Shown here one piece after another: positions 35,436-53,572 of a DNA stretch of 64,000 nucleotides. The notes below the pieces were generated by a model, which was not told where the DNA came from, did not search any database, and worked only from the letters and a program-made list of their open reading frames with translations. The DNA comes from Candidatus Hermodarchaeota archaeon (GTDB lineage Archaea > Asgardarchaeota > Hermodarchaeia > Hermodarchaeales > Hermodarchaeaceae): contig JAEOUH010000069.1 in assembly GCA_016839365.1 (NCBI GenBank), positions 1 to 64,000 of the forward strand, read 5' to 3'. Numbering within the stretch: position 1 is the stretch's first letter; each line of letters opens with the position of its first letter. Position numbers and translations under genes: made by a program.

Positions 35436-36905
35436 GTGGACATGTCTCCCACACCCTCTCAACCCACCAACTGTGACACCGATTCCACACGATTTGACAC
35501 CCGACAGTATCAAGAACATATCCTCCGACGAATCAAGGAAAACCGGAACCATAACATCTTGGTAGAATTAGACTGTGGGCTAGGCAAACGCGTCCTCACC
35601 TACAAATTAGTCACCGAGCAGTTTCCACAAACCCGGTTCATCATCACAGTCAACTCGTCATCCTCACTTCAAGAAACCGCCCAATATCTGGAAAAAGAAT
35701 ACGGCGGTGTTGAAGGCTTAGGTATCCTGGCTCCCAACGTTCAAGGACCTCATCGTGAACAACTCTTGCGAGAATCTCGGGTAGTCTTGTGCACACCTCG
35801 AGTGCTAGCCAACATTCTTAAAAAAGGCAATCTGACGCCAACCAACTTCGACGGCTTGATGATCAACGAAGTAGACACTATCATTAGGCGGGTTGGACAG
35901 GAGCGGGTGCTTATCCAACCGTGGAGTTATCTCCTCGAATTCTTTAAAGACAATTGGATTATTGGGCTCAGCGGTACCCTTCGCGACGATCATGTAGTGT
36001 TCACTGAAGAGCAGCTCCAGATCCGTAATGAACTCCAAACCCTTGCAGTGTTTCTACCTAACGTCGAACTGATCAGCATGAACGAATTGGCCGACACTGA
36101 TTTGAGCGAGTTCATCAAACCCACAATCTTGGATGCGGTTCCAGTCACCAGTCCAGTGATTCGAGCCACCTCCCTGGTCATCGACGACCTCATCCAATCC
36201 ACCCGGGAAGAAATTCACCAAAGGGTTCGCGAAGAAACCGGTCAGTCGATAGGGGAACTTCCAGAATCCACACGTATTCTACATTTAATCCTCCACGAAC
36301 TCCCCATCTCAGAAGAACTCGCTCAAAAATACAGCGGACTCCTAATGACCCGGAAATATTTGTACGGCATGGCATCTAAAAGCTTCCGCCGCTACCTCCA
36401 CCACCCCACCCTCAAATCTAACATCGATGTTAACCGCATGATGCAGGATTGGCCTAAAATCACTCCCAAATCACTGAAAGCCCAAGAGCTTGCATTAAAC
36501 GCTGACAAAACCGTCATCCTTACCTCATACCTCAACGTCGTCAGTGAAATAGACAGCTTGCTCAAAGTGAGGGGAGTAAATACTTTTCAACTCACCGGAC
36601 GCACCCAAGACAAACAAGCAGTGCTATCACAATTCAAACAGGCCAAACCACCTGCCGCAGTCATTTTATCTCCGGTCGGTGAGCGTGACCTTGACTTACC
36701 CGATGCCGATTTGCTTATAATTTGTGATACCGTCAATACGACGAAAACGGTCTATCAGAAAATGAAGCGTAGCCGTGGTGGACGAGTTGTTTTCTTGGTG
36801 TATGCAGACACCTCAGAAGTGGAGAAACTCCGACGCCTCCTAGATAACATCATGGAGCGGTATCCCTGGTCATCACGACTCGGCGATATGAAAGATTTGC
36901 GCTAA
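35436..36905 (+). CDS. superfamily-2 helicase-like protein (Hef/FANCM-like) with degenerate motifs
   Basis: RQYQ Q-motif, LDCGLGKR, VLCTP, INEVD, GLSGT, GERDLDLPDAD, QKMKRSRGGR. Confidence 0.7.
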   Translation: MDMSPTPSQPTNCDTDSTRFDTRQYQEHILRRIKENRNHNILVELDCGLGKRVLTYKLVTEQFPQTRFIITVNSSSSLQETAQYLEKEYGGVEGLGILAPNVQGPHREQLLRESRVVLCTPRVLANILKKGNLTPTNFDGLMINEVDTIIRRVGQERVLIQPWSYLLEFFKDNWIIGLSGTLRDDHVVFTEEQLQIRNELQTLAVFLPNVELISMNELADTDLSEFIKPTILDAVPVTSPVIRATSLVIDDLIQSTREEIHQRVREETGQSIGELPESTRILHLILHELPISEELAQKYSGLLMTRKYLYGMASKSFRRYLHHPTLKSNIDVNRMMQDWPKITPKSLKAQELALNADKTVILTSYLNVVSEIDSLLKVRGVNTFQLTGRTQDKQAVLSQFKQAKPPAAVILSPVGERDLDLPDADLLIICDTVNTTKTVYQKMKRSRGGRVVFLVYADTSEVEKLRRLLDNIMERYPWSSRLGDMKDLR

Positions 36906-38112: not shown

Positions 38113-38736
38113 ATGACCACCCACAATCAGCATTCCAAAGAAGAATCAACAGCTCCTACGGTCTTTCCTGTCTACGTCTTTGAGAGAACTAGCAAATCAA
38201 TCTTCAACTATTGTCTCAACAAAGCCACAGGGTCATCTCCGCGTGAAGCCCTGGGCGTCGTTCTGGGCTTTCGTCGACAATGGCAGGGAGAGAAGTATAT
38301 CCGTATCACCGATTGGGCCACCGGACACGTAGAAGCCAGTATTGCCCATGCCCGGTTCACTCCAGAAGGTATCCTCGAATATCGGCTTACCCTGCACGAT
38401 CGGTATGGCAATAATCCCCATTCTCCTCGCGTCGTCGGCCTCTGGCACTCCCATCCCTTTGGTGGCGATCCGCAGTTCTCCTCAACGGATTTACGTACAT
38501 TCTTCAACACGCCTTTCTGTGCTGAGGGCAACGTCTTCTTTTTGATTGATCCCCTCAGCCGGATCTTCAAAGTGTATATGCTTCGACCACGGCCCGAACA
38601 GCCCGGCTTACAGCTAGAAAGGGTAGAATGGTGTACCTATCGTCCATCAGTCCCCGCTGGGGAACCAATGCTTCAGGATAACTCGCTAATCCATGAGGAG
38701 GAAATGCGTGATGACGAAGAAGCCCACACCGATTGA
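38113..38736 (+). CDS. JAB/MPN+ (JAMM) metallo-isopeptidase
   Basis: REALG (catalytic Glu) and VGLWHSHPFGGDPQFSSTD (HxH-x7/8-SxxD), LIDP. Confidence 0.9.
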   Translation: MTTHNQHSKEESTAPTVFPVYVFERTSKSIFNYCLNKATGSSPREALGVVLGFRRQWQGEKYIRITDWATGHVEASIAHARFTPEGILEYRLTLHDRYGNNPHSPRVVGLWHSHPFGGDPQFSSTDLRTFFNTPFCAEGNVFFLIDPLSRIFKVYMLRPRPEQPGLQLERVEWCTYRPSVPAGEPMLQDNSLIHEEEMRDDEEAHTD

Positions 38737-39574
38737 TTTAGAGTATTTTGAGAAGGATCAGCATGATCGAACACGACGCTGGTTGGGGGCTACCAATCTT
38801 GAGGCCGTTCGTCAGTCAACGGTACTGATGGTGGGCGCAGGGGCAGTCGGGAATGAGGTCTGTAAGAATCTCGGCTTGTTAGGGGTTGGGAAAATCGTTT
38901 TGGTGGATCCCGATAAAGTGGCCGCCTCCAATTTGAACCGCTGTGTTTTCTTTCGTCCAGGAGACCACGATATTAAGTTCAAAGTCGATGCAGTGGCTGA
39001 GCGGCTCCCTGAACTCGCAACCGATACAGTGGTTGAACCACATGCCATACCGATACAGGTTGCACCGGACGAAGTGTGGGATGTTGACTTAGTGTTGGTC
39101 GGTGTTGACAACCATTATGCCCGCTACCTGCTGAATGCTAAAAATCTCAGCATCGAGCCACCCTTGCCAGTGATAAATGGGGCTATGGGAAAGGACTTCG
39201 TGTCAGTTGAAGTCCTCGCGCCACCAAAGACAGCGTGCTTGGTGTGTTCGTGGAGTAAAGACTTCGTCGATCATGTCATCACCAACGAAGTACGCACACG
39301 ATGTGATCCTTTCTTTGTTGACACTATGCCCCGATTTCCCATGATTAGTTTTGTTACCTCCGTTGTGGGCGCAGTGATGGCGTGGGAAGCCACAAAGATG
39401 CTTGCTGGATTACAGCAGTGGCGTCTAACGGGGCAATGGCAGGAGGGGCTCAAACCAGCACTTGGCCGGTTCATCCAATACGACTTACACAAGCATAAAT
39501 CCATGACAGGACCAATTATGGCAAATCCACGGTGTACAGAAATTTTCTGTCGCGATAAGCGGAAACATCTCTAA
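38711..39574 (+). CDS. ThiF/E1-like ubiquitin-like activating enzyme
   Basis: VGAGAVG, DPDKVAASNLNR, VDNHYAR, TACLVC, downstream RCD (candidate catalytic Cys), C-terminal PRCTEIFC; overlaps the JAB stop. Confidence 0.92.
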   Translation: MTKKPTPIDLEYFEKDQHDRTRRWLGATNLEAVRQSTVLMVGAGAVGNEVCKNLGLLGVGKIVLVDPDKVAASNLNRCVFFRPGDHDIKFKVDAVAERLPELATDTVVEPHAIPIQVAPDEVWDVDLVLVGVDNHYARYLLNAKNLSIEPPLPVINGAMGKDFVSVEVLAPPKTACLVCSWSKDFVDHVITNEVRTRCDPFFVDTMPRFPMISFVTSVVGAVMAWEATKMLAGLQQWRLTGQWQEGLKPALGRFIQYDLHKHKSMTGPIMANPRCTEIFCRDKRKHL

Positions 39575-39578
39575 CCCG

Positions 39579-41180
39579 TTAGATTAAACCAATGGTCTTC
39601 TGCCAGACCGTTGAAGTCGGTTTCTGATCAGCCCACAAGCGTAGGTTCAGAGTTACTTTGGGGGCTCCATTTGGCATAGGGAGGTTCATCCAAATATTCA
39701 CAGGGGAATCTAATCGAGGTGCGAAGGGTTCAATAGCCACTACCTGGTCCATAAGGCCGTCTGAAACGGTTGCTGTCATCACCATTTGGTCTAACGGATG
39801 GGCACTGCTTGGTTTTGGAATCAATGAGACCTTCAAGGGCAACGTACTCCCACGTGGGACAGCATCAGGGGCGTTAACCTCTAATTCTGCGGGGGCTTCT
39901 CTCAACCGGGCGGGAACCGATTCGGGGACACCCACCACTCGTTTTACTTTCCACCCGGTCTCAATCTTGGGCTCAGAACGCTCTCCCTTTTTTCCATCAA
40001 TGGCAACAGTATCAGAGTACCAACTGACTTTGAATTCTTGGCGGACGCGAGTATCCATCCAGTTTCCGATGATAAGGGGAATATGACGGTTTGTCACTCC
40101 TAACAATCCCATGGCCCCATGCCAGGTCGGATCAACAGGGATCCATTGACCCCGAATCCAAATTTCACTCCAAGCATGACGCTCCCAGGACTGCCCATTA
40201 TAAGCATAACCCGCTTCCAATCGGGCTGGTATTTTGTTCGCGCGACACAACGCCGCAAATAAAGCGGCATATTCAGTGCAATCACCAACCTGCTTTTCGA
40301 TAGCATAAGCTGCTCCTCTTTCATACTCTTGACGAACATACCGCATCTTCTTTGTAACTGCCCTCATCGCTGCTTGTGCAAATTGTATCGGTGTTGAATG
40401 ATCTTTAGCAATATCTCGGGCAAGATCTTTGATGAGGTGGTGGTGTGATTCTATGAAATTTTCTGGTTGGGTGAACTTAACGATATTGGATGGAAAGGCT
40501 GAGTTGCGAGTTTCTGGCGGAATATTATACCGTAGTGCGCGATTCCGAATGAGAGCTGTGTACCCACAGGTAAAGGCTTCTCCAACAGCAAGACTAGCTT
40601 GATGAAATCGTATCCATTGATTTCCGATTGTATCATTCTGTTGTTGTCCATCCTTCGGAGAGAACTGGATATCAAGTACCGTTTGCCGAGGAGGCAGCGA
40701 AGGCGGAGCAGCTATTATAACTCGAACATTGCTGATTCGAGCACGTGTAATGTTCTTCACAGTCGCTGAATAATTGACCCTGTGCACTACAATTGGTGGA
40801 TGTCCTCCTTCAAAGCGAAAGCATCCCATGACATAATGATCGTCGGGAGGTCCTCGATAGGGATACTTATCGATTGCGGCTTTGATGCGGGTTTCCTGCA
40901 ATGCAACAACGATTGTATAGAATCCAGACAGCAGATTTGCCGTCAGTGGCACACTAAATTCACCTGTATTAGTCTTACCAAAATGAAACGGGACCTTACT
41001 CACCATTCGCCCGAAGGGATCAATGATGTAGACGATCCCATTGTCAACCTTTACATTCGATTTTGCTTGACCCTTTCGTTTCAACTGAATAGAAATCCGT
41101 TGACCGGCTTTAACACTCGGAACACCATCTTGCCTCGTAGGGGCGATAATTTTCAAAGACACGGGAAGATTACTCGTCAT
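39579..41180 (-). CDS. transglutaminase-like cysteine protease/ligase with flanking Ig-like beta domains
   Basis: GDCTEYAALF..LCRA..IPAR, HAWSE, WIPVDPTW (Cys-His-Asp triad); no signal peptide. Confidence 0.88.
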   Translation of the reverse strand: MTSNLPVSLKIIAPTRQDGVPSVKAGQRISIQLKRKGQAKSNVKVDNGIVYIIDPFGRMVSKVPFHFGKTNTGEFSVPLTANLLSGFYTIVVALQETRIKAAIDKYPYRGPPDDHYVMGCFRFEGGHPPIVVHRVNYSATVKNITRARISNVRVIIAAPPSLPPRQTVLDIQFSPKDGQQQNDTIGNQWIRFHQASLAVGEAFTCGYTALIRNRALRYNIPPETRNSAFPSNIVKFTQPENFIESHHHLIKDLARDIAKDHSTPIQFAQAAMRAVTKKMRYVRQEYERGAAYAIEKQVGDCTEYAALFAALCRANKIPARLEAGYAYNGQSWERHAWSEIWIRGQWIPVDPTWHGAMGLLGVTNRHIPLIIGNWMDTRVRQEFKVSWYSDTVAIDGKKGERSEPKIETGWKVKRVVGVPESVPARLREAPAELEVNAPDAVPRGSTLPLKVSLIPKPSSAHPLDQMVMTATVSDGLMDQVVAIEPFAPRLDSPVNIWMNLPMPNGAPKVTLNLRLWADQKPTSTVWQKTIGLI

Positions 41181-41565
41181 TATCTCGACCTACTTGGTCG
41201 GCTTCAGAGCGGGATTCGATTCCTTCTTCTTCTGGAAGAATAACTACTTTTCCACCCAGTGGTTGAGGTGAGCGTCGGGGGACATCGCCCAATATTCTCA
41301 CAGATGTTCGTATCTCCGTAGGTTGGCTTCCTAAATCCAATCGGGGACCCAAAAACCGAGTAAAGTGTGGAGAGTGGGCTTCACCGCCACGAACGATTGC
41401 TCCGGGACAGGTGCCTTGCCCTGATTCTAAGAAGAGGGCACGACACGAAGGACAAATATAGCTACCACAGACTGTACAAATCCACCATTGGCTCCGTGCA
41501 TTTTCAAGTGAAACTTGAGTGGCACAAGCCGCACACCGCATTTGGGATGCACCATGTATACTCAT
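41170..41565 (-). CDS. RING-like/PHD-like Zn finger with SIM-like tail (candidate E3)
   Basis: C-x2-C-x15-C-x2-C-x4-C-x2-C-x11-CP-x9-H; tail RTSVRILGD and KVVILPEEE. Confidence 0.65.
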   Translation of the reverse strand: MSIHGASQMRCAACATQVSLENARSQWWICTVCGSYICPSCRALFLESGQGTCPGAIVRGGEAHSPHFTRFLGPRLDLGSQPTEIRTSVRILGDVPRRSPQPLGGKVVILPEEEGIESRSEADQVGRDNDE

Positions 41566-41794: not shown

Positions 41795-42547
41795 TTATCT
41801 CTCATCATCAAGAATCCGAACCGATGTACGTCTACTTGGTTTATCCAAAACGCGGGGCGCCCTTCGAACAGATTCCGCGCTTGATGATGAGGACTCAAGT
41901 ATGCGTACACGTCCCTGCCGTGAAGCCGCAGCTGGCCCATCCTTGTGCTGGGCTTCCCAGAGCTGATCAAGGGTTTCAACGATTCTGTCTGCATCTTGCT
42001 CATACCATGCCATAGCCGCCATATTTAGACCATGATCGGATTGAAACTGAGATGGTGGTTCTACTCGGTCTGGTTTTAACAATACAAAAAAGGGGAGATC
42101 TTCAAGGATACGATCTAATTCTCCACGAACCGAGTAGCAGGCATGTCCAGTCCCGCTCGCCGCCAGTCTGGGGTGATACAGGGGCGTTTCTGCTACAGGT
42201 CGAATGGCGCCTATGTTCTGAGGGTACTCTCGGGGCAAATCAAAGATGAATCGATGCTCATAACGTATGGCGCTTGTATCCTCAAGGTTTCTGGGTTTAC
42301 GAACGAAGCCGGGGAGATTACGCATAGTAAAGCGAATCCGTTTAAAAGCTCCATCGCGATATCGGGCGATGGTGGAAACGGTGAAATCGCGATTGCTCCA
42401 AGCTGTGTCTTCGCGGTGCGGAGGATCTGGATCCCACCCTCGTCGTCCAAAGAGATTGTTCATAGTGTCAAAAAATGTCTGAATCTGGGTTTCCACTCTG
42501 GCGTTAAACAGCTCAGTAGAGAATACTGGTCGGGTCACGATTATCAC
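41795..42547 (-). CDS. E2/UBC-fold ubiquitin-like conjugating enzyme
   Basis: FIFDLPREYP, TPLYHPR (HPN-like), GHAC (catalytic Cys position), LNMAAMAWY helix; low-complexity tail. Confidence 0.8.
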   Translation of the reverse strand: MIIVTRPVFSTELFNARVETQIQTFFDTMNNLFGRRGWDPDPPHREDTAWSNRDFTVSTIARYRDGAFKRIRFTMRNLPGFVRKPRNLEDTSAIRYEHRFIFDLPREYPQNIGAIRPVAETPLYHPRLAASGTGHACYSVRGELDRILEDLPFFVLLKPDRVEPPSQFQSDHGLNMAAMAWYEQDADRIVETLDQLWEAQHKDGPAAASRQGRVRILESSSSSAESVRRAPRVLDKPSRRTSVRILDDER

Positions 42548-42591: not shown

Positions 42592-42912
42592 TTATTGTCC
42601 GACTTCAGGGACTACATCGAGGAGGAAGAATTCATCATCGGTGATTTTTGGTTCTAGCTCCCCGAAGGTTATACCTGGACTTAGCCGGGTGGGTTCAGGG
42701 GCTTTACGGATGAGCACAAATTCTGCACGCTGGTCCCCGATTTTCGCTTTAGCCCAATCGTCAATACTGACGCCCTCATCACGGGCCTGGGTGACAAGAG
42801 TGCGGATGACTTCATCGACACGGGTATCTTCATCAATGCCGATTCGGAATTCCTTTTGACGGGGCTCAACATCGACGATGATTGAGCGCCAAAATCCTTC
42901 ATCTTTACTCAA
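42592..42912 (-). CDS. ubiquitin-like (beta-grasp) protein with a capped C-terminal glycine
   Basis: SIIVDV..KEFRIGIDEDTRVDEVIRTL...FVLIR..LSPGITFGEL..ITDDEFFLLDVVPEVG-Q; TTG start after GGTGA; first gene upstream of E2. Confidence 0.72.
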   Translation of the reverse strand: MSKDEGFWRSIIVDVEPRQKEFRIGIDEDTRVDEVIRTLVTQARDEGVSIDDWAKAKIGDQRAEFVLIRKAPEPTRLSPGITFGELEPKITDDEFFLLDVVPEVGQ

Positions 42913-43154: not shown

Positions 43155-46049
43155 ATGACCACTAGGCACAAGCCATCCTTATCAACTTCACCAATCGTGT
43201 TTCGTAGTATCCGTCTAGTGAACTTTGTCATTCACCGTGATACCACAATCCAACTCGATCAATCCCCTGTCATTCTTATTACAGGCTCCAATGGAAGCGG
43301 AAAAACCTTGATTCTCGACGCCCTGTTGCTCGCAATTGGCGTTGAATCTCGAAGAGCCCAACGTCAACGCAATTCGGCTTTCATCGGTCGATTCGAGAAA
43401 TATGCTGAAGTCATTCTAGAACTTAACAACTACCAACTCAATGGGCGACGAGTCTTAAGAAGCCCCGATCCTACCATGTCTGCGCTTCTTGATAAGGACG
43501 TTGTGTCGATCCGGCTACGAGTCGATGAAACAAACCGAATATCCTATTGGTTGAATGAAAAACGATCAGTGAATGGCCATCAGATTGCTCGTAAAGATAT
43601 TCGGAAACTCTTCCAAGCTGCTGGACTCTTTGGAGATTCTCCCTTAGCTGTTACTGAGGCTGAGACTTTAGACCACTTTGCCTCCCAATCTCCACGACGA
43701 AAGTTCGAGACTCTCCTGAACGAAACTGGGCTCCGTAATTGGATGGAAAAACTCGAGGAAGCCCGTCTCCTCGTATTACAGGCAAGAGCCAATGTCAAGC
43801 CCCTCGAATACCGGATCCGCCATGAAGAACAGCGCCTCCAGGTTCTGAAGGCAGCCTATGAAGCTTTTCAACAAAAACAGCAGCTCCAACAGAGACAGAA
43901 GGATCTCGACGTTGAAGCGGCCTGGGCTGAAGTGGCTTATCGTGAGGAGCTTGCTAGCCAACTCCAATCACAAGTTACCAGTCTGGAAACCCAACTCTCC
44001 GACCAAAATGAGAAATTGGACAAGTTAGACCAAAGGAAAACCAGCTTGAAAGAGAAGTGCGAAGCGATTGAAGCAAAACGGGAAAAGCTCCTAACAACCA
44101 TGGACTCGCTACACGATGAGCGGTTGCAAGCACAAGGCCATCGGCGAGGGCTAGAGAATGAACTCAAAGGCATGCTAAATCGAACAGAACGATATACCAA
44201 GCGTCGGAAGCCCGCAACAGGCAAAATTGACGCCATTCAGAAGGAGTTAGCAACGATTATCCAGGATCGAGATGGCATCGATGATCAACTCGCTCAGGTC
44301 CGACAAGATATTGCCTCAACGGAAGAGTACCTCTTTACCAAACCCCAACGGTATCCACATTTTGAAGAGACAATACTTCGGGGCTGCCTCCGATACCGGT
44401 CTGAACTTGATAAACTCGCACTCTCTGATGCAGTGATTGGGCCCCTTTTTGCGCTCATTCGTATGAAACCGGAGTATGCACAGTACGAAACCGCGGTCAA
44501 ACTGGCCTTGGGACGCTACTCCTATGCATTCATTGCTCTGAATCGAGAGGTCTTCGTTGAGGCTAAAAACTTGTATGATCATCTCTGGCCACATGAAAAG
44601 CCAGATCTGGTGGTCGCCCGGACAAATCCCACGACCGCGATAACGCGAGATCGCCCAACGGTTTCTTTACCCGTGATTGGTTGGGCAGCTGATCTCATTG
44701 AAGGGGATATATATGCCATTAGTTTCCTAAGCCGTGTCATAAACACAGCTATCGCGGAGGAAGGAGCCGATCCCAACACGCTAGTCGATGCCTCTCAACA
44801 ACTCAATTGCAACATCATTACTAGTGAAGGAACAAGTCATTATCTCCGAATCGGCGCCTTTGCCCGACCACCCCGACCCGTTACGGTAAGTTTGGATGTC
44901 TCTCTCAACGATTTGGGACTAGCCCAGGATGGCGCTGATACACGCATTCAACTCCGTGAACTTCGTGAACAAGAAGCTAAACTGATGCGAGACCGAATGC
45001 GCATCAATTCTGAAATAAGTCAACTTCGGGCAACCCTCCAAGACCTTCAGCAAGTGCACATATCTCATCTTTCTGATGGGGAAAGAACAGCCCTGGTCAC
45101 TAGTTCTGAACATCGAGTCGCTGAATTACAACAACTGATTCTTGAACTGGAAACTGAATGCGACAGGCTTAGCCAAGATTATCAGGAATATAACTTAGAA
45201 TTATCACCGATCCATTCCCGACAGCAAAAACTATCCGAACAACTCCAAAACCTTGACCTTCGACGATCACGCCGTCAGGTTGAAATCAACCACCTCGTTG
45301 CAGAGCTCAAGCAACGCGAAGATGAATATGAGCATCTCATTAAACAAACCAAACATTTCCGTAAGGCTGCCACAGCACTGGGAGAACGCCCTCAGGCTGT
45401 TCGAAACCCTACTGCGATTCGTGATGAACAAATCCAAATCCAGGCGATGATTGATACTATCACCGCCACAGCAGACGATCGGCAAGCCTTTGAAGACCAG
45501 GAACAAGTCGTCTCCCAACTCCAAGACTACCTCAAACAACGTCAGCTCCACTTAGAAAATCTGATGACGGACGTTGATCGAAGACTTCTCGAGTGGAGAC
45601 GGCAACTCCAAGAGACGGTTGAAATCCTCAACCACCGTATGAACCAATTACTCAGCCACTTCCTCAAGCAAGTCAAACTGCTTATTCGATTCCCCGATGA
45701 ACCCAGTCGTGCGGAGCTCCACCTTCAACTTGCCATTAACCGCAAAGGCGACTGGCGGACCTATCAAGAAATGTCTGGGGGCGAACGGGTCCTAGCCACC
45801 CAGACTTTCATTTTAGCCCTACACACTCTCGCCAAGAGTCCCCTCCATGTGATTGATGAATTTACCCAACGCCTCGATGAAGCAAGCCGTGCAGCTATTC
45901 TCAGTGTTGTTCAACGCGCCCTCGATTTAACCCAAAAAGACTCACTAATTCATCCACAGTTTCTTCTAATGGCTCCCTCCACGGTCGGACTCGAGATCCC
46001 AGAGACTATGCACCACGTCGTGCTGATCAAAGGACAGGTGAAAGTCTAA
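43155..46049 (+). CDS. SMC5/6-like ATPase
   Basis: IRLVNFVIH, Walker A GSNGSGKT, long coiled coils, hinge VIGPLFALI..AVKLALG..AF, signature MSGGER, Walker B/D-loop HVIDEFTQRLD, H-loop QFLLMAP. Confidence 0.88.
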   Translation: MTTRHKPSLSTSPIVFRSIRLVNFVIHRDTTIQLDQSPVILITGSNGSGKTLILDALLLAIGVESRRAQRQRNSAFIGRFEKYAEVILELNNYQLNGRRVLRSPDPTMSALLDKDVVSIRLRVDETNRISYWLNEKRSVNGHQIARKDIRKLFQAAGLFGDSPLAVTEAETLDHFASQSPRRKFETLLNETGLRNWMEKLEEARLLVLQARANVKPLEYRIRHEEQRLQVLKAAYEAFQQKQQLQQRQKDLDVEAAWAEVAYREELASQLQSQVTSLETQLSDQNEKLDKLDQRKTSLKEKCEAIEAKREKLLTTMDSLHDERLQAQGHRRGLENELKGMLNRTERYTKRRKPATGKIDAIQKELATIIQDRDGIDDQLAQVRQDIASTEEYLFTKPQRYPHFEETILRGCLRYRSELDKLALSDAVIGPLFALIRMKPEYAQYETAVKLALGRYSYAFIALNREVFVEAKNLYDHLWPHEKPDLVVARTNPTTAITRDRPTVSLPVIGWAADLIEGDIYAISFLSRVINTAIAEEGADPNTLVDASQQLNCNIITSEGTSHYLRIGAFARPPRPVTVSLDVSLNDLGLAQDGADTRIQLRELREQEAKLMRDRMRINSEISQLRATLQDLQQVHISHLSDGERTALVTSSEHRVAELQQLILELETECDRLSQDYQEYNLELSPIHSRQQKLSEQLQNLDLRRSRRQVEINHLVAELKQREDEYEHLIKQTKHFRKAATALGERPQAVRNPTAIRDEQIQIQAMIDTITATADDRQAFEDQEQVVSQLQDYLKQRQLHLENLMTDVDRRLLEWRRQLQETVEILNHRMNQLLSHFLKQVKLLIRFPDEPSRAELHLQLAINRKGDWRTYQEMSGGERVLATQTFILALHTLAKSPLHVIDEFTQRLDEASRAAILSVVQRALDLTQKDSLIHPQFLLMAPSTVGLEIPETMHHVVLIKGQVKV

Positions 46050-46840
46050 TGATAACTAATGATACTTCTACATTTCTCCGTGCCTTTCCGCGCCGCAAGG
46101 CCTGGTATGACACTTTCCAATACAACTACAAGCGAACACGACTATCATCTTTTGGAACCAAAGGGATAGTAATTACGCTATGGAATCTGACCAAAAAGTA
46201 TGAGGTTGCCCTAAAACAGCACGATACGTTCCCGATTAAGGAAGCGGAGATTGACCGTGAAGAAGTTGCCGATGCATACCGCGTCCTTGATACCCCCTGG
46301 GAACGAACTCTCGATGGGCGTTTCTACTATAATCTCGCTTCAATGCAACATCACCGGGATTCTCAATTGGCTGCTCCTGAAATCGCTCCCGAGGAATGGA
46401 TTTCCCAATTTGCCAATGAGGTCAAACGACGCGCGACTCCGGTACTCTTTTTAATTAATCAAGAGCGGACCATCCCACCTTTCCAATTGCCTCCTGCTGA
46501 TTCGCCGGTCGCAATGGACGATGCCCCTACCCAAGATGATAAACAGGCTATGCGCAAACACCGTATCTCTTATGAAGAGATCTCCATAGACGCTCTCGGC
46601 GCTAGAAGGGCGGATATCCTGAAACGGCTACAAGGCAAACGATACAACTATGCAGCCCTATCCGAAATCCTAACCAACTGGGAACTCGATTTACTCAGCC
46701 AGATGATTCGGGATAACATCTGTCCTGCAACGTTCGAAAAAACGGCTATCATTTTTCGACACCCTCCACCTAAAACAAATCCTGCTTTCACTGCTGTTGC
46801 CATTACCGCACAAAACCATGAGGAGGTTCCTCGAAAGTGA
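46049..46840 (+). CDS. putative kleisin-like subunit (ScpA/Nse4 position)
   Basis: TAATG-coupled to SMC and GTGA-coupled to the KITE; helical N-terminus, Pro/acidic linker, possible C-terminal winged helix; call is mainly positional. Confidence 0.45.
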   Translation: MITNDTSTFLRAFPRRKAWYDTFQYNYKRTRLSSFGTKGIVITLWNLTKKYEVALKQHDTFPIKEAEIDREEVADAYRVLDTPWERTLDGRFYYNLASMQHHRDSQLAAPEIAPEEWISQFANEVKRRATPVLFLINQERTIPPFQLPPADSPVAMDDAPTQDDKQAMRKHRISYEEISIDALGARRADILKRLQGKRYNYAALSEILTNWELDLLSQMIRDNICPATFEKTAIIFRHPPPKTNPAFTAVAITAQNHEEVPRK

Positions 46841-47484
46841 CCTCAGATCCAATACCTACTGACACCATCTCTTCCACAAGCGAGGATTCAGAAGAAGAGG
46901 TGTTAGAGCAACGTCATCTCATTGGTCAGCTCTTTGCCGCCCTCACAGCAAGGTTTCGGAATGAGGAAGGCCAACTCAGCATCGGGGTCAAACGGCAAGA
47001 TCTTTTAGAAGCCCTTCATATCAATAAGACTGGCTTAGTCCGCCTCCTCGATTTACTCCGCCAGCAAATATCTCCCCTGGGGCTAGAATTGGTTGAATAT
47101 CGAATGGGACGGGACACGCTCTATTGTGTTCGAACCATTTACGGAGTTCCTGGCGAGCTCACTGATCCTGAATACGCCGTATTAGGAGTCATCATTTCCA
47201 CTGTAGAACAGGTGAGTAAACTCCATCGTCCACGCCGGGTGGCCACAAAAGACATCGAAACAATCCTTGTAGCCCGTGGGCGCCTCTCCCGCTACCAACT
47301 CGATCGTATTTTACGACGACTAACCGAGCTAGGCTATATTACGCGAACCGCACGACGAATTACTTACGGTCCACGACTCGAATTGGAATTTGATGCTGAA
47401 CGCCGTGAAGCCATCGCCAGCGCAGCAACCCTGTATCTCGCAGGGGCTACAGCTGATTCGGAGGAAGACCTGAATGAAACTTGA
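46837..47484 (+). CDS. KITE protein (tandem winged helix, Nse1/Nse3-MAGE/ScpB-like)
   Basis: LRQQISPLGLELVE, LTDPEYAVLGVII, LDRILRRLTELGYI, ITYGPRLELEF (GPR..E motif of Nse1/MAGE WH-B). Confidence 0.72.
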   Translation: MTSDPIPTDTISSTSEDSEEEVLEQRHLIGQLFAALTARFRNEEGQLSIGVKRQDLLEALHINKTGLVRLLDLLRQQISPLGLELVEYRMGRDTLYCVRTIYGVPGELTDPEYAVLGVIISTVEQVSKLHRPRRVATKDIETILVARGRLSRYQLDRILRRLTELGYITRTARRITYGPRLELEFDAERREAIASAATLYLAGATADSEEDLNET

Positions 47485-47935
47485 TCTCTCCACCGTTGGC
47501 ATCAGTTGTGTAGCCTGTGGAACCCGAATCACACTTGAGGAGGCAATCCAGAAGGAATGGCACCAATGTTTACGGTGTCAGTTCTTCATTGATCCCCATT
47601 GTCTTGGAATTGTCCAAAACACCATGGGTGGGGTCTGCCCCTCATTTAGCCAAGGAGTGACCCGTCATTCCTTGCAAGCTGCTGATATTCCTACAGAACA
47701 GATCCTCATATTCGTCAAAGATCAATATCAGAAAGGTCACGGAGGTGCTCTCATCGACTCCTTATTTTATACCAGACCTTCAGCTTTAAAGAAACCACAA
47801 CACCCAAGTCAAATGGAATCGAACTCTGAAGAACCTCTCACCCGAGAAGAAATCTGGCAACGCTTTGGACTCGTTTTAGTGCAGCGGTCCCAAGGTAAAT
47901 GGAAAACTTGGGAAAAAGTTGGCAGTACTAGCTGA
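47474..47935 (+). CDS. RING-like Zn finger protein (paralog of 41170-41565; Nse1-RING-like)
   Basis: C-x2-C-x16-C-x2-C-x4-D-x2-C-x11-CP-x8-H; overlaps the KITE stop. Confidence 0.65.
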   Translation: MKLDLSTVGISCVACGTRITLEEAIQKEWHQCLRCQFFIDPHCLGIVQNTMGGVCPSFSQGVTRHSLQAADIPTEQILIFVKDQYQKGHGGALIDSLFYTRPSALKKPQHPSQMESNSEEPLTREEIWQRFGLVLVQRSQGKWKTWEKVGSTS

Positions 47936-47937
47936 TA

Positions 47938-48369
47938 TTGTCCAAGGGACATAAACTATTTACCTATCAACCACTCATGCCTTCCTATACGAATTGGCTT
48001 GCATCATTTTTGGAGTTGATGGGTTTGGGTGACGAAAAGGCTCCCAGTTGGGTAAAACACGCCGTTCGGCGTTGGAAGCAATTCTATAATGAAATTCAGT
48101 TCATCGATGGACAAATTGATACTGCAAATCCGTTGAGTGTAATTTTCCGAAATGAAGCTCTCTTAAATCAAGTAGTATCCCAATCACAGGCTGTCACCTC
48201 ACCCATTGAACCAACCCTTTCAAAGAAAGAAGAATCAGCTCCATCTCAACCTGAAAAGACTCCTTCGCCAAATCCCGAAAAAAAGCAGCGCAAAGGATGG
48301 TTCATTTCTAAACTCAAAGACCTCCAATACCTATTCAATCGCCCTCTTTGGTCCTGGGATTCTTTCTAG
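47938..48369 (+). CDS. hypothetical protein, last gene of the SMC operon
   Basis: Starts 2 nt after the upstream stop; helical N-terminus, Pro/Ser linker, aromatic C-terminal helix. Confidence 0.6.
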   Translation: MSKGHKLFTYQPLMPSYTNWLASFLELMGLGDEKAPSWVKHAVRRWKQFYNEIQFIDGQIDTANPLSVIFRNEALLNQVVSQSQAVTSPIEPTLSKKEESAPSQPEKTPSPNPEKKQRKGWFISKLKDLQYLFNRPLWSWDSF

Positions 48370-52858: not shown

Positions 52859-53455
52859 CTACTCCTCCTTGACGCTATTGTGGTCATTTCGGTACGGCAA
52901 TCGTAGAAATTTTGCTTTTGATATGTAACTGACATCTTCAATATCGAAAATCCTAATTTCCCGGATACAGTTACAGACAGGACATCGGAAGAAATACCGC
53001 TCGAAGTTCTCACACTCAATCTGCATCAACTCCCCCTCACAGTCACTGCACCGAATAATCGCATTAACGCCTTCTCGCTCGCTATTTGGAATAGTGGCAA
53101 GAACTTCACGGCCCTTGTCCGTTAACCGATAACCCGTCACCGTTCCATATTGACTTGTGCTGATCTTGAGGTGGTCGAGTAAGCCCATCTCCCGAAGGTC
53201 GTTCAAATCATCAACACCCTCACGCGAGATATTCATGAAACGTCGATAGCCATCTAAACACAGAATGGACATTGCCGCATAATCATAGGTTTCGAACACG
53301 CCTTCAACAGTGAGTACATACATCACAGCAAGTAATGGCCCATCCTTGAACCAATGTTCTTGATCATCGGAGGTCTGTTTTTCATGAGCATAAGACCCGA
53401 TGAGAAACACTAATTTCTGCTGGTCCTTCGTAAGTTCCACTTTGTCCACCGTCAT
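52859..53455 (-). CDS. hypothetical winged-helix/Zn-ribbon protein
   Basis: YDYA, NISREGVDDLNDLRE, YRLTDKG, CSDC..CPVC, EDVSY; 2 nt from the downstream gene. Confidence 0.6.
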   Translation of the reverse strand: MTVDKVELTKDQQKLVFLIGSYAHEKQTSDDQEHWFKDGPLLAVMYVLTVEGVFETYDYAAMSILCLDGYRRFMNISREGVDDLNDLREMGLLDHLKISTSQYGTVTGYRLTDKGREVLATIPNSEREGVNAIIRCSDCEGELMQIECENFERYFFRCPVCNCIREIRIFDIEDVSYISKAKFLRLPYRNDHNSVKEE

Positions 53456-53572
53456 ATCCCCTAAACGCAACAGTAAACAACAATTTCTGACCATAGTTAA
53501 AAAGCTTCATAGTGCTTAACCACTTGGGCTGCAAAGTGTTTAGGAAACCTTAGCGAAAGGAACCTGAATTGG

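Follow-up and report, generated by a model that had tools for sequence, protein, structure and literature searches.

The question raised by one locus of an Asgard archaeon is whether a small finger protein, encoded directly downstream of a KITE gene in an operon related to SMC5/6, one of the complexes for structural maintenance of chromosomes (SMC), is a dedicated subunit of that complex, and how it is related to the ligase arms of the eukaryotic counterpart. To our knowledge, SMC5/6 is the least understood of the eukaryotic SMC complexes and alone among them has ubiquitin (Nse1) and SUMO (Nse2) ligases built in. The current evolutionary account regards these ligase parts as eukaryotic additions, and eukaryotes are thought to have emerged from an archaeal class that carries the gene cassette described here. 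The locus lies in a window of 64,000 nucleotides (nt) of Candidatus Hermodarchaeota archaeon (assembly GCA_016839365.1, contig JAEOUH010000069.1, positions 1 to 64,000 of the forward strand), for which a sequence-only reading had proposed a split, pre-fusion Nse1, consisting of a KITE gene followed by a separate RING-like gene. The archaeal SMC5/6-related operons reported from TACK and Asgard lineages comprise three genes, encoding an SMC together with a kleisin related to Nse4 and a kite related to Nse1/3, and the RING of Nse1 is said to be absent from archaeal kites and to be a eukaryotic innovation (PMC8665677; 10.1101/2024.01.07.573240). The RING-like fourth gene of the window is real and conserved and, within the literature searched, apparently undescribed. 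Its product of 153 amino acids (aa) is regarded, with moderate confidence, as a dedicated fourth subunit and RING-type adaptor of one subtype of Asgard SMC5/6-related complexes.

Five open reading frames (ORFs) are tightly packed on the + strand from 43155 to 48369. The cassette starts with an SMC gene of 964 aa (43155..46049; Pfam SMC_N, E-value 3e-22), which is followed by a 263-aa kleisin candidate (46049..46840), so assigned only from its position between SMC and KITE, and by a 215-aa tandem winged-helix KITE gene, probably of Nse1/3 type (46837..47484). The finger gene (47474..47935) encodes a finger domain in residues 1–72 (47474..47689) and a C-terminal part with a conserved motif in residues 73–153 (47690..47935). 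Its reading frame is +1 with respect to KITE, and the two genes overlap by 11 nt (47474–47484), as had been claimed and is borne out by the ORF coordinates. The ATG of the finger gene is the first possible start downstream of an in-frame TGA, and a Shine-Dalgarno-like GGAGGA, which may function as such, can be read inside the 3' end of the KITE gene (47460..47465, + strand), 8 nt before this ATG. A programmed frameshift that joins the two products is unlikely because the cassettes of other families show a 1-nt overlap or a 20-nt gap.

Counting of residues along the finger protein gives C12-x2-C15-x16-C32-x2-C35-x4-D40-x2-C43-x11-C55-P56-x8-H65, exactly the Cys/Asp/His spacing of the sequence-only reading. 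Across 20 finger sequences, C12, C32, C35, C43, C55 and H65 never vary, and at least 90% of the sequences retain W29 and P56. Because this conservation extends down to 19% identity, the ligand pattern is not a product of chance. Position 40 is occupied by Cys in nearly all other lineages, in one Hermod-like homologue and in a paralogue within the window, and by Asp in Hermod; by the alignment, D40 is a derived Hermod state. Ligand 2 turns to His or Asp in some Heimdall-class families, and both variable ligands (C/H/D) fall in site 1 of the predicted cross-brace, with site 2 invariant. The whole pattern can be written as C4-[C/D]-C-C-H, in which the eighth ligand is a His 8–9 residues past the CP and not the second Cys of a CPxC.

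In the AlphaFold2 (AF2) model of the finger protein, model confidence (pLDDT, predicted local distance difference test) averages 60, reaching 76–88 over residues 11–70, with a helix at residues 41–50, and falling to 30–54 in the C-terminal part. VIA structural comparison gave Z scores of 3.9–5.8 (3.9–5.3 against 48,161 chains) over 50–63 of ~70 residues, and more than 40 of the top 50 matches were RING, U-box or SP-RING domains. The matches include Prp19, APC11, listerin, RNF4, TRAFs, Ring1b/Bmi1, Slx1 and p44, and no FYVE or PHD domain is found among the top ones; the model thus resembles RING and U-box domains and not the FYVE/PHD fold that would have contradicted a split Nse1. Foldseek returned no significant match, its list consisting of RING, ZZ and U-box domains. 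Sequence searches were less specific: Pfam gave a sub-threshold scatter over C1, FYVE, several RING families, IBR and B-box, with the best scores (C1_1, 0.0057; FYVE, 0.0029) below the cut-offs, and NCBIfam gave sub-threshold matches only. A single-sequence search of PDB sequences yielded nothing significant, and a PDB profile search yielded RNF4, TRIM21, CesA RING, CNOT4 and p44 below threshold and no Nse1. ESM Atlas provided weak leads only, such as Prok-RING_1 at 0.75. A FYVE, PHD or C1 finger was rejected, given that its Pfam matches are sub-threshold, that FYVE and PHD are missing from the top structural matches, and that the basic RHHCR patch of FYVE, the Trp before ligand 7 of PHD and the N-terminal His of C1 are all missing in the finger alignment. 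The finger therefore models as a RING/U-box-type binuclear cross-brace, and by sequence it would be placed as an unclassified binuclear treble clef.

The C-terminal part carries the motif REExW-x3-G-x-VLV-x-R-x2-GK[WF]-x2-WE, which the orthologues in SMC operons retain, although it has degenerated in f8, the most divergent of the families; the paralogues in ubiquitin-like protein (Ubl) operons lack it. As a separate observation on this gene, the database gene calls P0073-P0079 begin at the internal Met51 (101–103 aa), so that only two of the eight ligands are left; the gene overlap probably led to miscalled start sites here, and at least one of these calls is from a contig equal in length (31,631 nt), and presumably identical, to one with a normal 215-aa KITE.

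The upstream gene had been taken for a tandem winged-helix KITE other than an ordinary ScpB, and both parts of this assignment were supported. Its AF2 model (mean pLDDT 81) is a tandem winged helix, and Foldseek matched it to ScpB, MAGE-G1/Nse3, Nse1, MukE and JetB with E-values of 2e-4 to 5e-3. After VIA re-alignment, Nse1 chains hold ranks 1, 2, 4 and 5 (7dg2_A, Z 10.9 over 159 residues; 7tve_C, 10.0; 5hvq_C, 9.9; 7ymd_B, 9.7), and the runners-up ScpB (Z 9.3–9.4) and JetB (9.2) are within ~1.5 Z of Nse1. The two-domain matches to Nse1, ScpB and JetB span 144–161 residues at Z 9–11, and the lead of Nse1 over ScpB and JetB in these models appears slight and not decisive. The peptide YGPRLELEF, described as the end of this protein, is present at residues 177–185 of 215 and closes the second winged helix, but a 30-residue helix and tail follow it. 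By sequence methods, only a MarR-like helix-turn-helix was seen; Pfam and NCBIfam gave sub-threshold matches, and neither single-sequence nor profile searches against PDB sequences gave anything significant. Comparison with the Nse1 families, as had been suggested, gave little: PF07574 (SMC_Nse1) was matched weakly by one of 22 KITE members (E-value 0.13), and for the finger PF08746 (zf-RING-like) was absent for close homologues and among the 25 of 45 families listed for a diverse set. An ScpB identity was rejected, since PF04079 (ScpB) was matched by none of the 22 KITE members at E<=10 and a true ScpB is located beside the canonical SMC on contig C15. The KITE is thus genuine and probably of Nse1/3 type. 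As had also been noted, it is single, with one KITE gene per cassette and one KITE match per genome; a Hermodarchaeum genome in a published table likewise has SMC5/6-related SMCs and one Nse1/3-related kite.

A phmmer search of PDB with the 964-aa SMC matched the heads of Smc, SMC3 and SMC6/5. Because the genome separately encodes a canonical SMC of 1195 aa on contig C15 with the true ScpB adjoining (PF04079, 110 bits), the cassette SMC is a second, non-canonical SMC system of this genome. Orthologues of it head the same cassette in 8 families, and all cassettes examined have the 263-aa gene between SMC and KITE. ORFs of ~220–330 aa whose similarity to the cassette SMC is limited to its N-terminal head part (E-value 1e-26 to 1e-30) were also observed in families f7 and f11, near the cassette or apart from it (L089:16639-17307, that is G015:C1, ~2 kb upstream of the cassette; L120:708-1364; L121:3-980); they may be fragments or a separate head-like protein.

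The distribution of the cassette was examined by searching 400 genomes of the phylum with finger and KITE profiles, which matched 68 and 62 genomes, respectively, in the same GTDB families (f1, f2, f6, f7, f8, f11, f12 and f29). In 60 of these 62 KITE genomes, the finger gene follows immediately downstream of KITE without a change of contig; in the remaining two, both genes border on contig ends. Families f2, f6, f7, f8, f11 and f12 share one order, with SMC first, then the kleisin-like gene, KITE and the finger gene, and the spacing between KITE and finger ranges from the 11-nt overlap to a gap of ~20 nt. The parallel drawn earlier between this gene order and the domain order of Nse1 holds in every cassette of this type. 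The host families span Hermodarchaeia and the single GTDB class to which f6-f12 belong, and the source labels of finger-cluster members are Heimdallarchaeota, Kariarchaeaceae, Gerdarchaeota and Hodarchaeales. Within families the cassette is frequent (18/18 genomes in f1, 28/31 in f7 and 11/12 in f12). Because SMC, KITE and finger rank the families by identity in much the same order, these genes were inherited together, and the four genes of the cassette behave as one inherited unit. In five finger-less genomes, the cassette SMC had no match at E<=1e-10, and a looser search gave one weak match (3.4e-7) in a single one of the five. Natural fusions of KITE and finger, for which a search had been recommended, were not found: the genes are separate at all loci, the word-index search gave no longer form, and no KITE domain was detected with kite.hmm among the 79 representatives of the finger family (91 sequences scanned with extra cluster members). 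Downstream of the finger gene, a 143-aa ORF without a Pfam match (47938..48369, + strand) begins 3 nt past its end; it had no phmmer match beside the cassettes examined in six other families and may be a Hermod-specific fifth gene.

Other SMC5/6-like cassettes of Asgard archaea were found through the window SMC, and those of a closed 4.36-Mb genome and of representatives of f20 and f24 are without any finger. According to a published table, SMC5/6-related components are also present in the Thor, Loki, Hel, Jord, Baldr and Sif lineages, the families of which gave no finger match in the 400-genome profile search. The finger is thus confined to one subtype of these cassettes. A further arrangement is present in all six genomes of genus g28 in family f14, where genes for a metallopeptidase-like-RING protein, an AAA+ ATPase (459 aa), an SMC (835 aa), a kleisin-like middle protein (218 aa) and a KITE (172 aa) follow one another (L118:610-1350, corresponding to G116:C1:1913609-1914349, with L118:1694-6701). 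The first protein of this operon is an HExxH (HELGH) metallopeptidase-like protein with a C-terminal C4HC3 RING, C-x2-C-x12-C-x2-C-x4-H-x2-C-x10-CPxC, which phmmer matched to the Arkadia RING (E-value 8.8e-4) and to the human NSE1 RING 2ct0 (0.0097). The f14 cassette is without the window-type finger, which aligns in register to the f14 RING, though not significantly. Because the f14 operon has a different RING, more Nse1-like by sequence than the window finger, RING-type modules have joined SMC5/6-like operons at least twice.

The only other copy of the finger in the window genome is a paralogue of 131 aa (41170..41565, - strand; BLASTP 33% identity, E-value 4e-8) with Cys at the D40 position and without the C-terminal motif. 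It is located ~6 kb from the cassette finger within a Ubl-conjugation cluster, which contains a Prok-JAB gene (38113-38736, + strand; Pfam 1.3e-8; PADLOC JAB match), a ThiF-type E1 gene (38693-39574, + strand; Pfam ThiF 1.5e-34; PADLOC E1-E2 match) and, on the - strand, a putative E2-like gene (41795-42547) and a putative Ubl gene (42592-42912), which are divergent from the SMC operon across ~240 bp. In f12 of the Heimdall class, orthologues of the Ubl and E2-like candidates and a second finger likewise adjoin the cassette, and the presence of a paralogous finger in the adjacent JAB/E1/E2-like/Ubl cluster in both cases provides a link to Ubl signalling.

Beyond these operons, the finger profile matched 79 clusters at E<=1e-3 among 1.84 billion representative proteins, and the named clusters are all Asgard. 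Neither Nse1 nor any other SMC5/6 protein of eukaryotes was recognised in these clusters, of which ~20 multidomain matches were scanned with Pfam, the library being one without names. The finger is found behind Ras-like GTPases (P0133, P0135, P0141), behind SWIM (P0131, P0139, P0146, P0156), behind a coiled-coil/PCI-like region (P0126, P0127, P0130, P0132, P0134, P0149) and ahead of a long coiled coil (P0119, L119:7371-7892). Two of the fusion groups have a source label, the coiled-coil/PCI-like P0126 and the Ras-like P0141 cluster, in both cases Hodarchaeales. The N-terminus of P0126 is PCI-like at 0.83 in ESM Atlas, a weak lead, and the coiled-coil/PCI-like group is unlike the KITE (hhalign probability 0.8%; no kite.hmm match). 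The fusion proteins with Ras-like, SWIM and coiled-coil/PCI-like N-termini are absent from the 400 phylum genomes and 83 class genomes searched and from one metagenome scan. By these domain architectures, the finger is a mobile Asgard module with several unrelated partners. An apparent second finger-bearing cassette in genome G079 was rejected, the extra finger being an N-terminal finger on a coiled-coil protein.

Based on these observations, a possible mode of action can be proposed for the cassette. The complex would consist of the SMC, the kleisin-like protein, a single Nse1/3-type KITE and the 153-aa finger protein, and the KITE and finger proteins may be produced by translational coupling of their genes. 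The N-terminal 70 residues of the finger protein would coordinate two zinc ions as a cross-brace of RING type, with C12, C15, C/D40 and C43 at site 1, which tolerates His or Asp, and the invariant C32, C35, C55 and H65 at site 2. The conserved C-terminal motif would most likely dock the protein on the KITE/kleisin module. Most likely, the finger would then be an adaptor of RING type, through which a charged E2-like enzyme or some other partner is recruited to the SMC complex; in genomes that have the adjoining Ubl-E1-E2-JAB cluster and its paralogous finger, this cluster would be the likely partner. In eukaryotic SMC5/6, the functional counterpart would be the RING of Nse1 or the SP-RING of Nse2. 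Several points weigh against this proposal. Membership of the finger protein in the complex is suggested by synteny, and the 263-aa gene is an unconfirmed kleisin candidate from its position, having shown no similarity to kleisins in Pfam or PDB sequence searches, profile search included. The finger model was built from a shallow alignment, and Z scores of 4–6 are modest for a fold claim. As for the positions expected to contact an E2, at least 90% of the sequences retain the Pro that follows ligand 7, but the position ahead of ligand 2, canonically hydrophobic, varies (A, V, G, F, N, E or S). Finally, in f7, the largest group, with two closed genomes, the cassette is kept among unrelated neighbours of housekeeping metabolism, and the E2-like and Ubl candidates were not found with window queries in four f7 genomes. 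The finger therefore cannot depend on the neighbouring Ubl system everywhere, and it is tied more tightly to the SMC cassette than to that system.

The persistence of the f7 cassette without neighbouring E2-like and Ubl genes would also be expected if the finger were a structural or regulatory zinc module without an E3-like role, which stabilises the KITE-kleisin pair or binds DNA or another partner. This alternative is possible but doubtful. It agrees with the poor conservation of the E2-contact positions and the drift of the site-1 ligands to Asp or His, and passages in two papers on the eukaryotic complex (PMC8750328, PMC11335289) treat the ligase activity of Nse1 as disputed and its RING as important for Smc5/6 stability. 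On the other hand, a paralogue of the finger lies inside the Ubl/E1/E2-like/JAB cluster, the domains matched by fold are those of E3s, the Pro that follows ligand 7 is retained, and f7 genomes may be served by other E2s, which were not searched for. It is very improbable that the finger gene neighbours the cassette without being related to it, or that it belongs to a mobile defence island of Wadjet or Lamassu type. PADLOC matched the SMC weakly and generically to the LmuB and JetC models, but gave no JetA, JetB, JetD or other match for the kleisin candidate, the KITE or the finger, and a Wadjet/Lamassu identity was rejected; moreover, the cassette occurs in nearly all members of whole families, unlike patchy islands, and its f7 surroundings are housekeeping genes.

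The proposal of a true split Nse1 holds that the Nse1 RING descends directly from the finger, that the KITE stop codon was lost in stem eukaryotes with fusion of KITE and finger, and that the C-terminal motif was lost after fusion to the WH-WH-RING (WH, winged helix) form. We consider this unlikely. The shared order of genes and domains, the RING at the extreme N-terminus of the downstream gene and the Nse1 chains as best whole-length matches of the KITE speak for it, as does the occurrence of the cassette in the Heimdall class, with one orthologue labelled Hodarchaeales. The central spacing C-x2-C-x4-[C/D/H]-x2-C-x11/12-CP fits the RING of human NSE1, as had been claimed, but the eighth ligand differs. 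Superposition of the single-protein models on Nse1 gave a similarly divided outcome: the KITE matches Nse1 best, and the finger superposes on 2ct0 (Z 4.5) and on residues 176–232 of 7dg2_A (Z 4.2), but the Nse2 SP-RINGs 7p47_A (Z 4.5) and 7qcd_C (Z 4.3) score alike, and neither type stands out among dozens of tied RINGs. Thus, of the pre-fusion proposal the gene order stands, but sequence signal is missing, with no Nse1 among the 79 clusters or in the PDB profile search and no PF08746 among the Pfam families listed, and no fusion was found. The extra C-terminal part lies outside the WH-WH-RING description of Nse1, the finger domain is promiscuous (Ras-like, SWIM and PCI-like fusions), and the Loki-type (G134, G249), f24 and f14 cassettes examined are without it; f14 has instead a RING closer to Nse1 by sequence, which implies that RINGs were recruited more than once. 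Since gene order, a generic spacing and the slight preference of the KITE for Nse1 are what speaks for it, ancestry of the Nse1 RING in this finger seems improbable, and the reading as a dedicated RING-type adaptor subunit is preferred.

Compared with known systems, the cassette shares with the published archaeal operons (Yoshinaga & Inagaki 2021; van Hooff et al.) a second SMC, accompanied by a kleisin of its own (here a candidate) and by a kite related to Nse1/3; those operons have three genes, whereas a RING-like fourth gene is invariable in the subtype described here. With Nse1, it shares the succession of a tandem winged-helix KITE (Z 10.9) of an SMC5/6-type complex and a RING-type binuclear finger. 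In contrast to Nse1, two genes are present and never fused, and the single KITE gene presumably gives a homodimer instead of the Nse1/Nse3 pair; ligand 5 is Cys or Asp and not His, ligand 8 is a His 8–9 residues past the CP and not that of CPxC, an extra conserved C-terminal motif is present, and sequence matches to the PF07574/PF08746 families are lacking. Nse2/Mms21 is similar as a separate small RING-type polypeptide of an SMC5/6-type complex, with a structural match equal to that of Nse1, and a putative non-ubiquitin Ubl system is found in the neighbourhood here. However, the SP-RING binds one zinc, whereas the window finger has eight ligands, and the helical N-terminal domain through which Nse2 docks on the Smc5 arm is absent. 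The C4C4 RINGs of CNOT4, CesA (N-terminal RING, zf-UDP) and TFIIH p44 share a (nearly) all-Cys cross-brace, the central C-x2-C-x4-C-x2-C and the CP at ligand 7, and are the best sub-threshold sequence matches of the finger, all under the family thresholds; the last ligand and the spacing differ, and no domain context is common to them. ScpB, MukE and JetB have the tandem winged-helix fold and one KITE gene per operon beside kleisin and SMC, but no PF04079, JetB or MukE sequence match was obtained, and those systems are without a RING-like partner gene.

Irrespective of any descent of the Nse1 RING from this finger, the cassette suggests that an SMC5/6-type machine was coupled to RING-type modules, and in some lineages to Ubl-conjugation modules, already in archaea. 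If the split Nse1 were true, the ubiquitin-type ligase arm of SMC5/6 would predate eukaryotes and would have begun as a separate archaeal subunit, which contradicts the published view of the Nse1 RING as a eukaryotic innovation. The four-protein system with a single KITE may also serve as a small model for RING function on an SMC complex.

Two further genes of the window may be mentioned. A 489-aa superfamily-2 helicase (35436-36905, + strand) with ResIII, Helicase_C and weak ERCC3/XPB C-terminal matches is located just upstream of JAB/E1, and a 211-aa ORF (52859-53494, - strand) has a weak PadR-like winged-helix match (E-value 0.05) and a C-terminal CxxC pair resembling a zinc ribbon.

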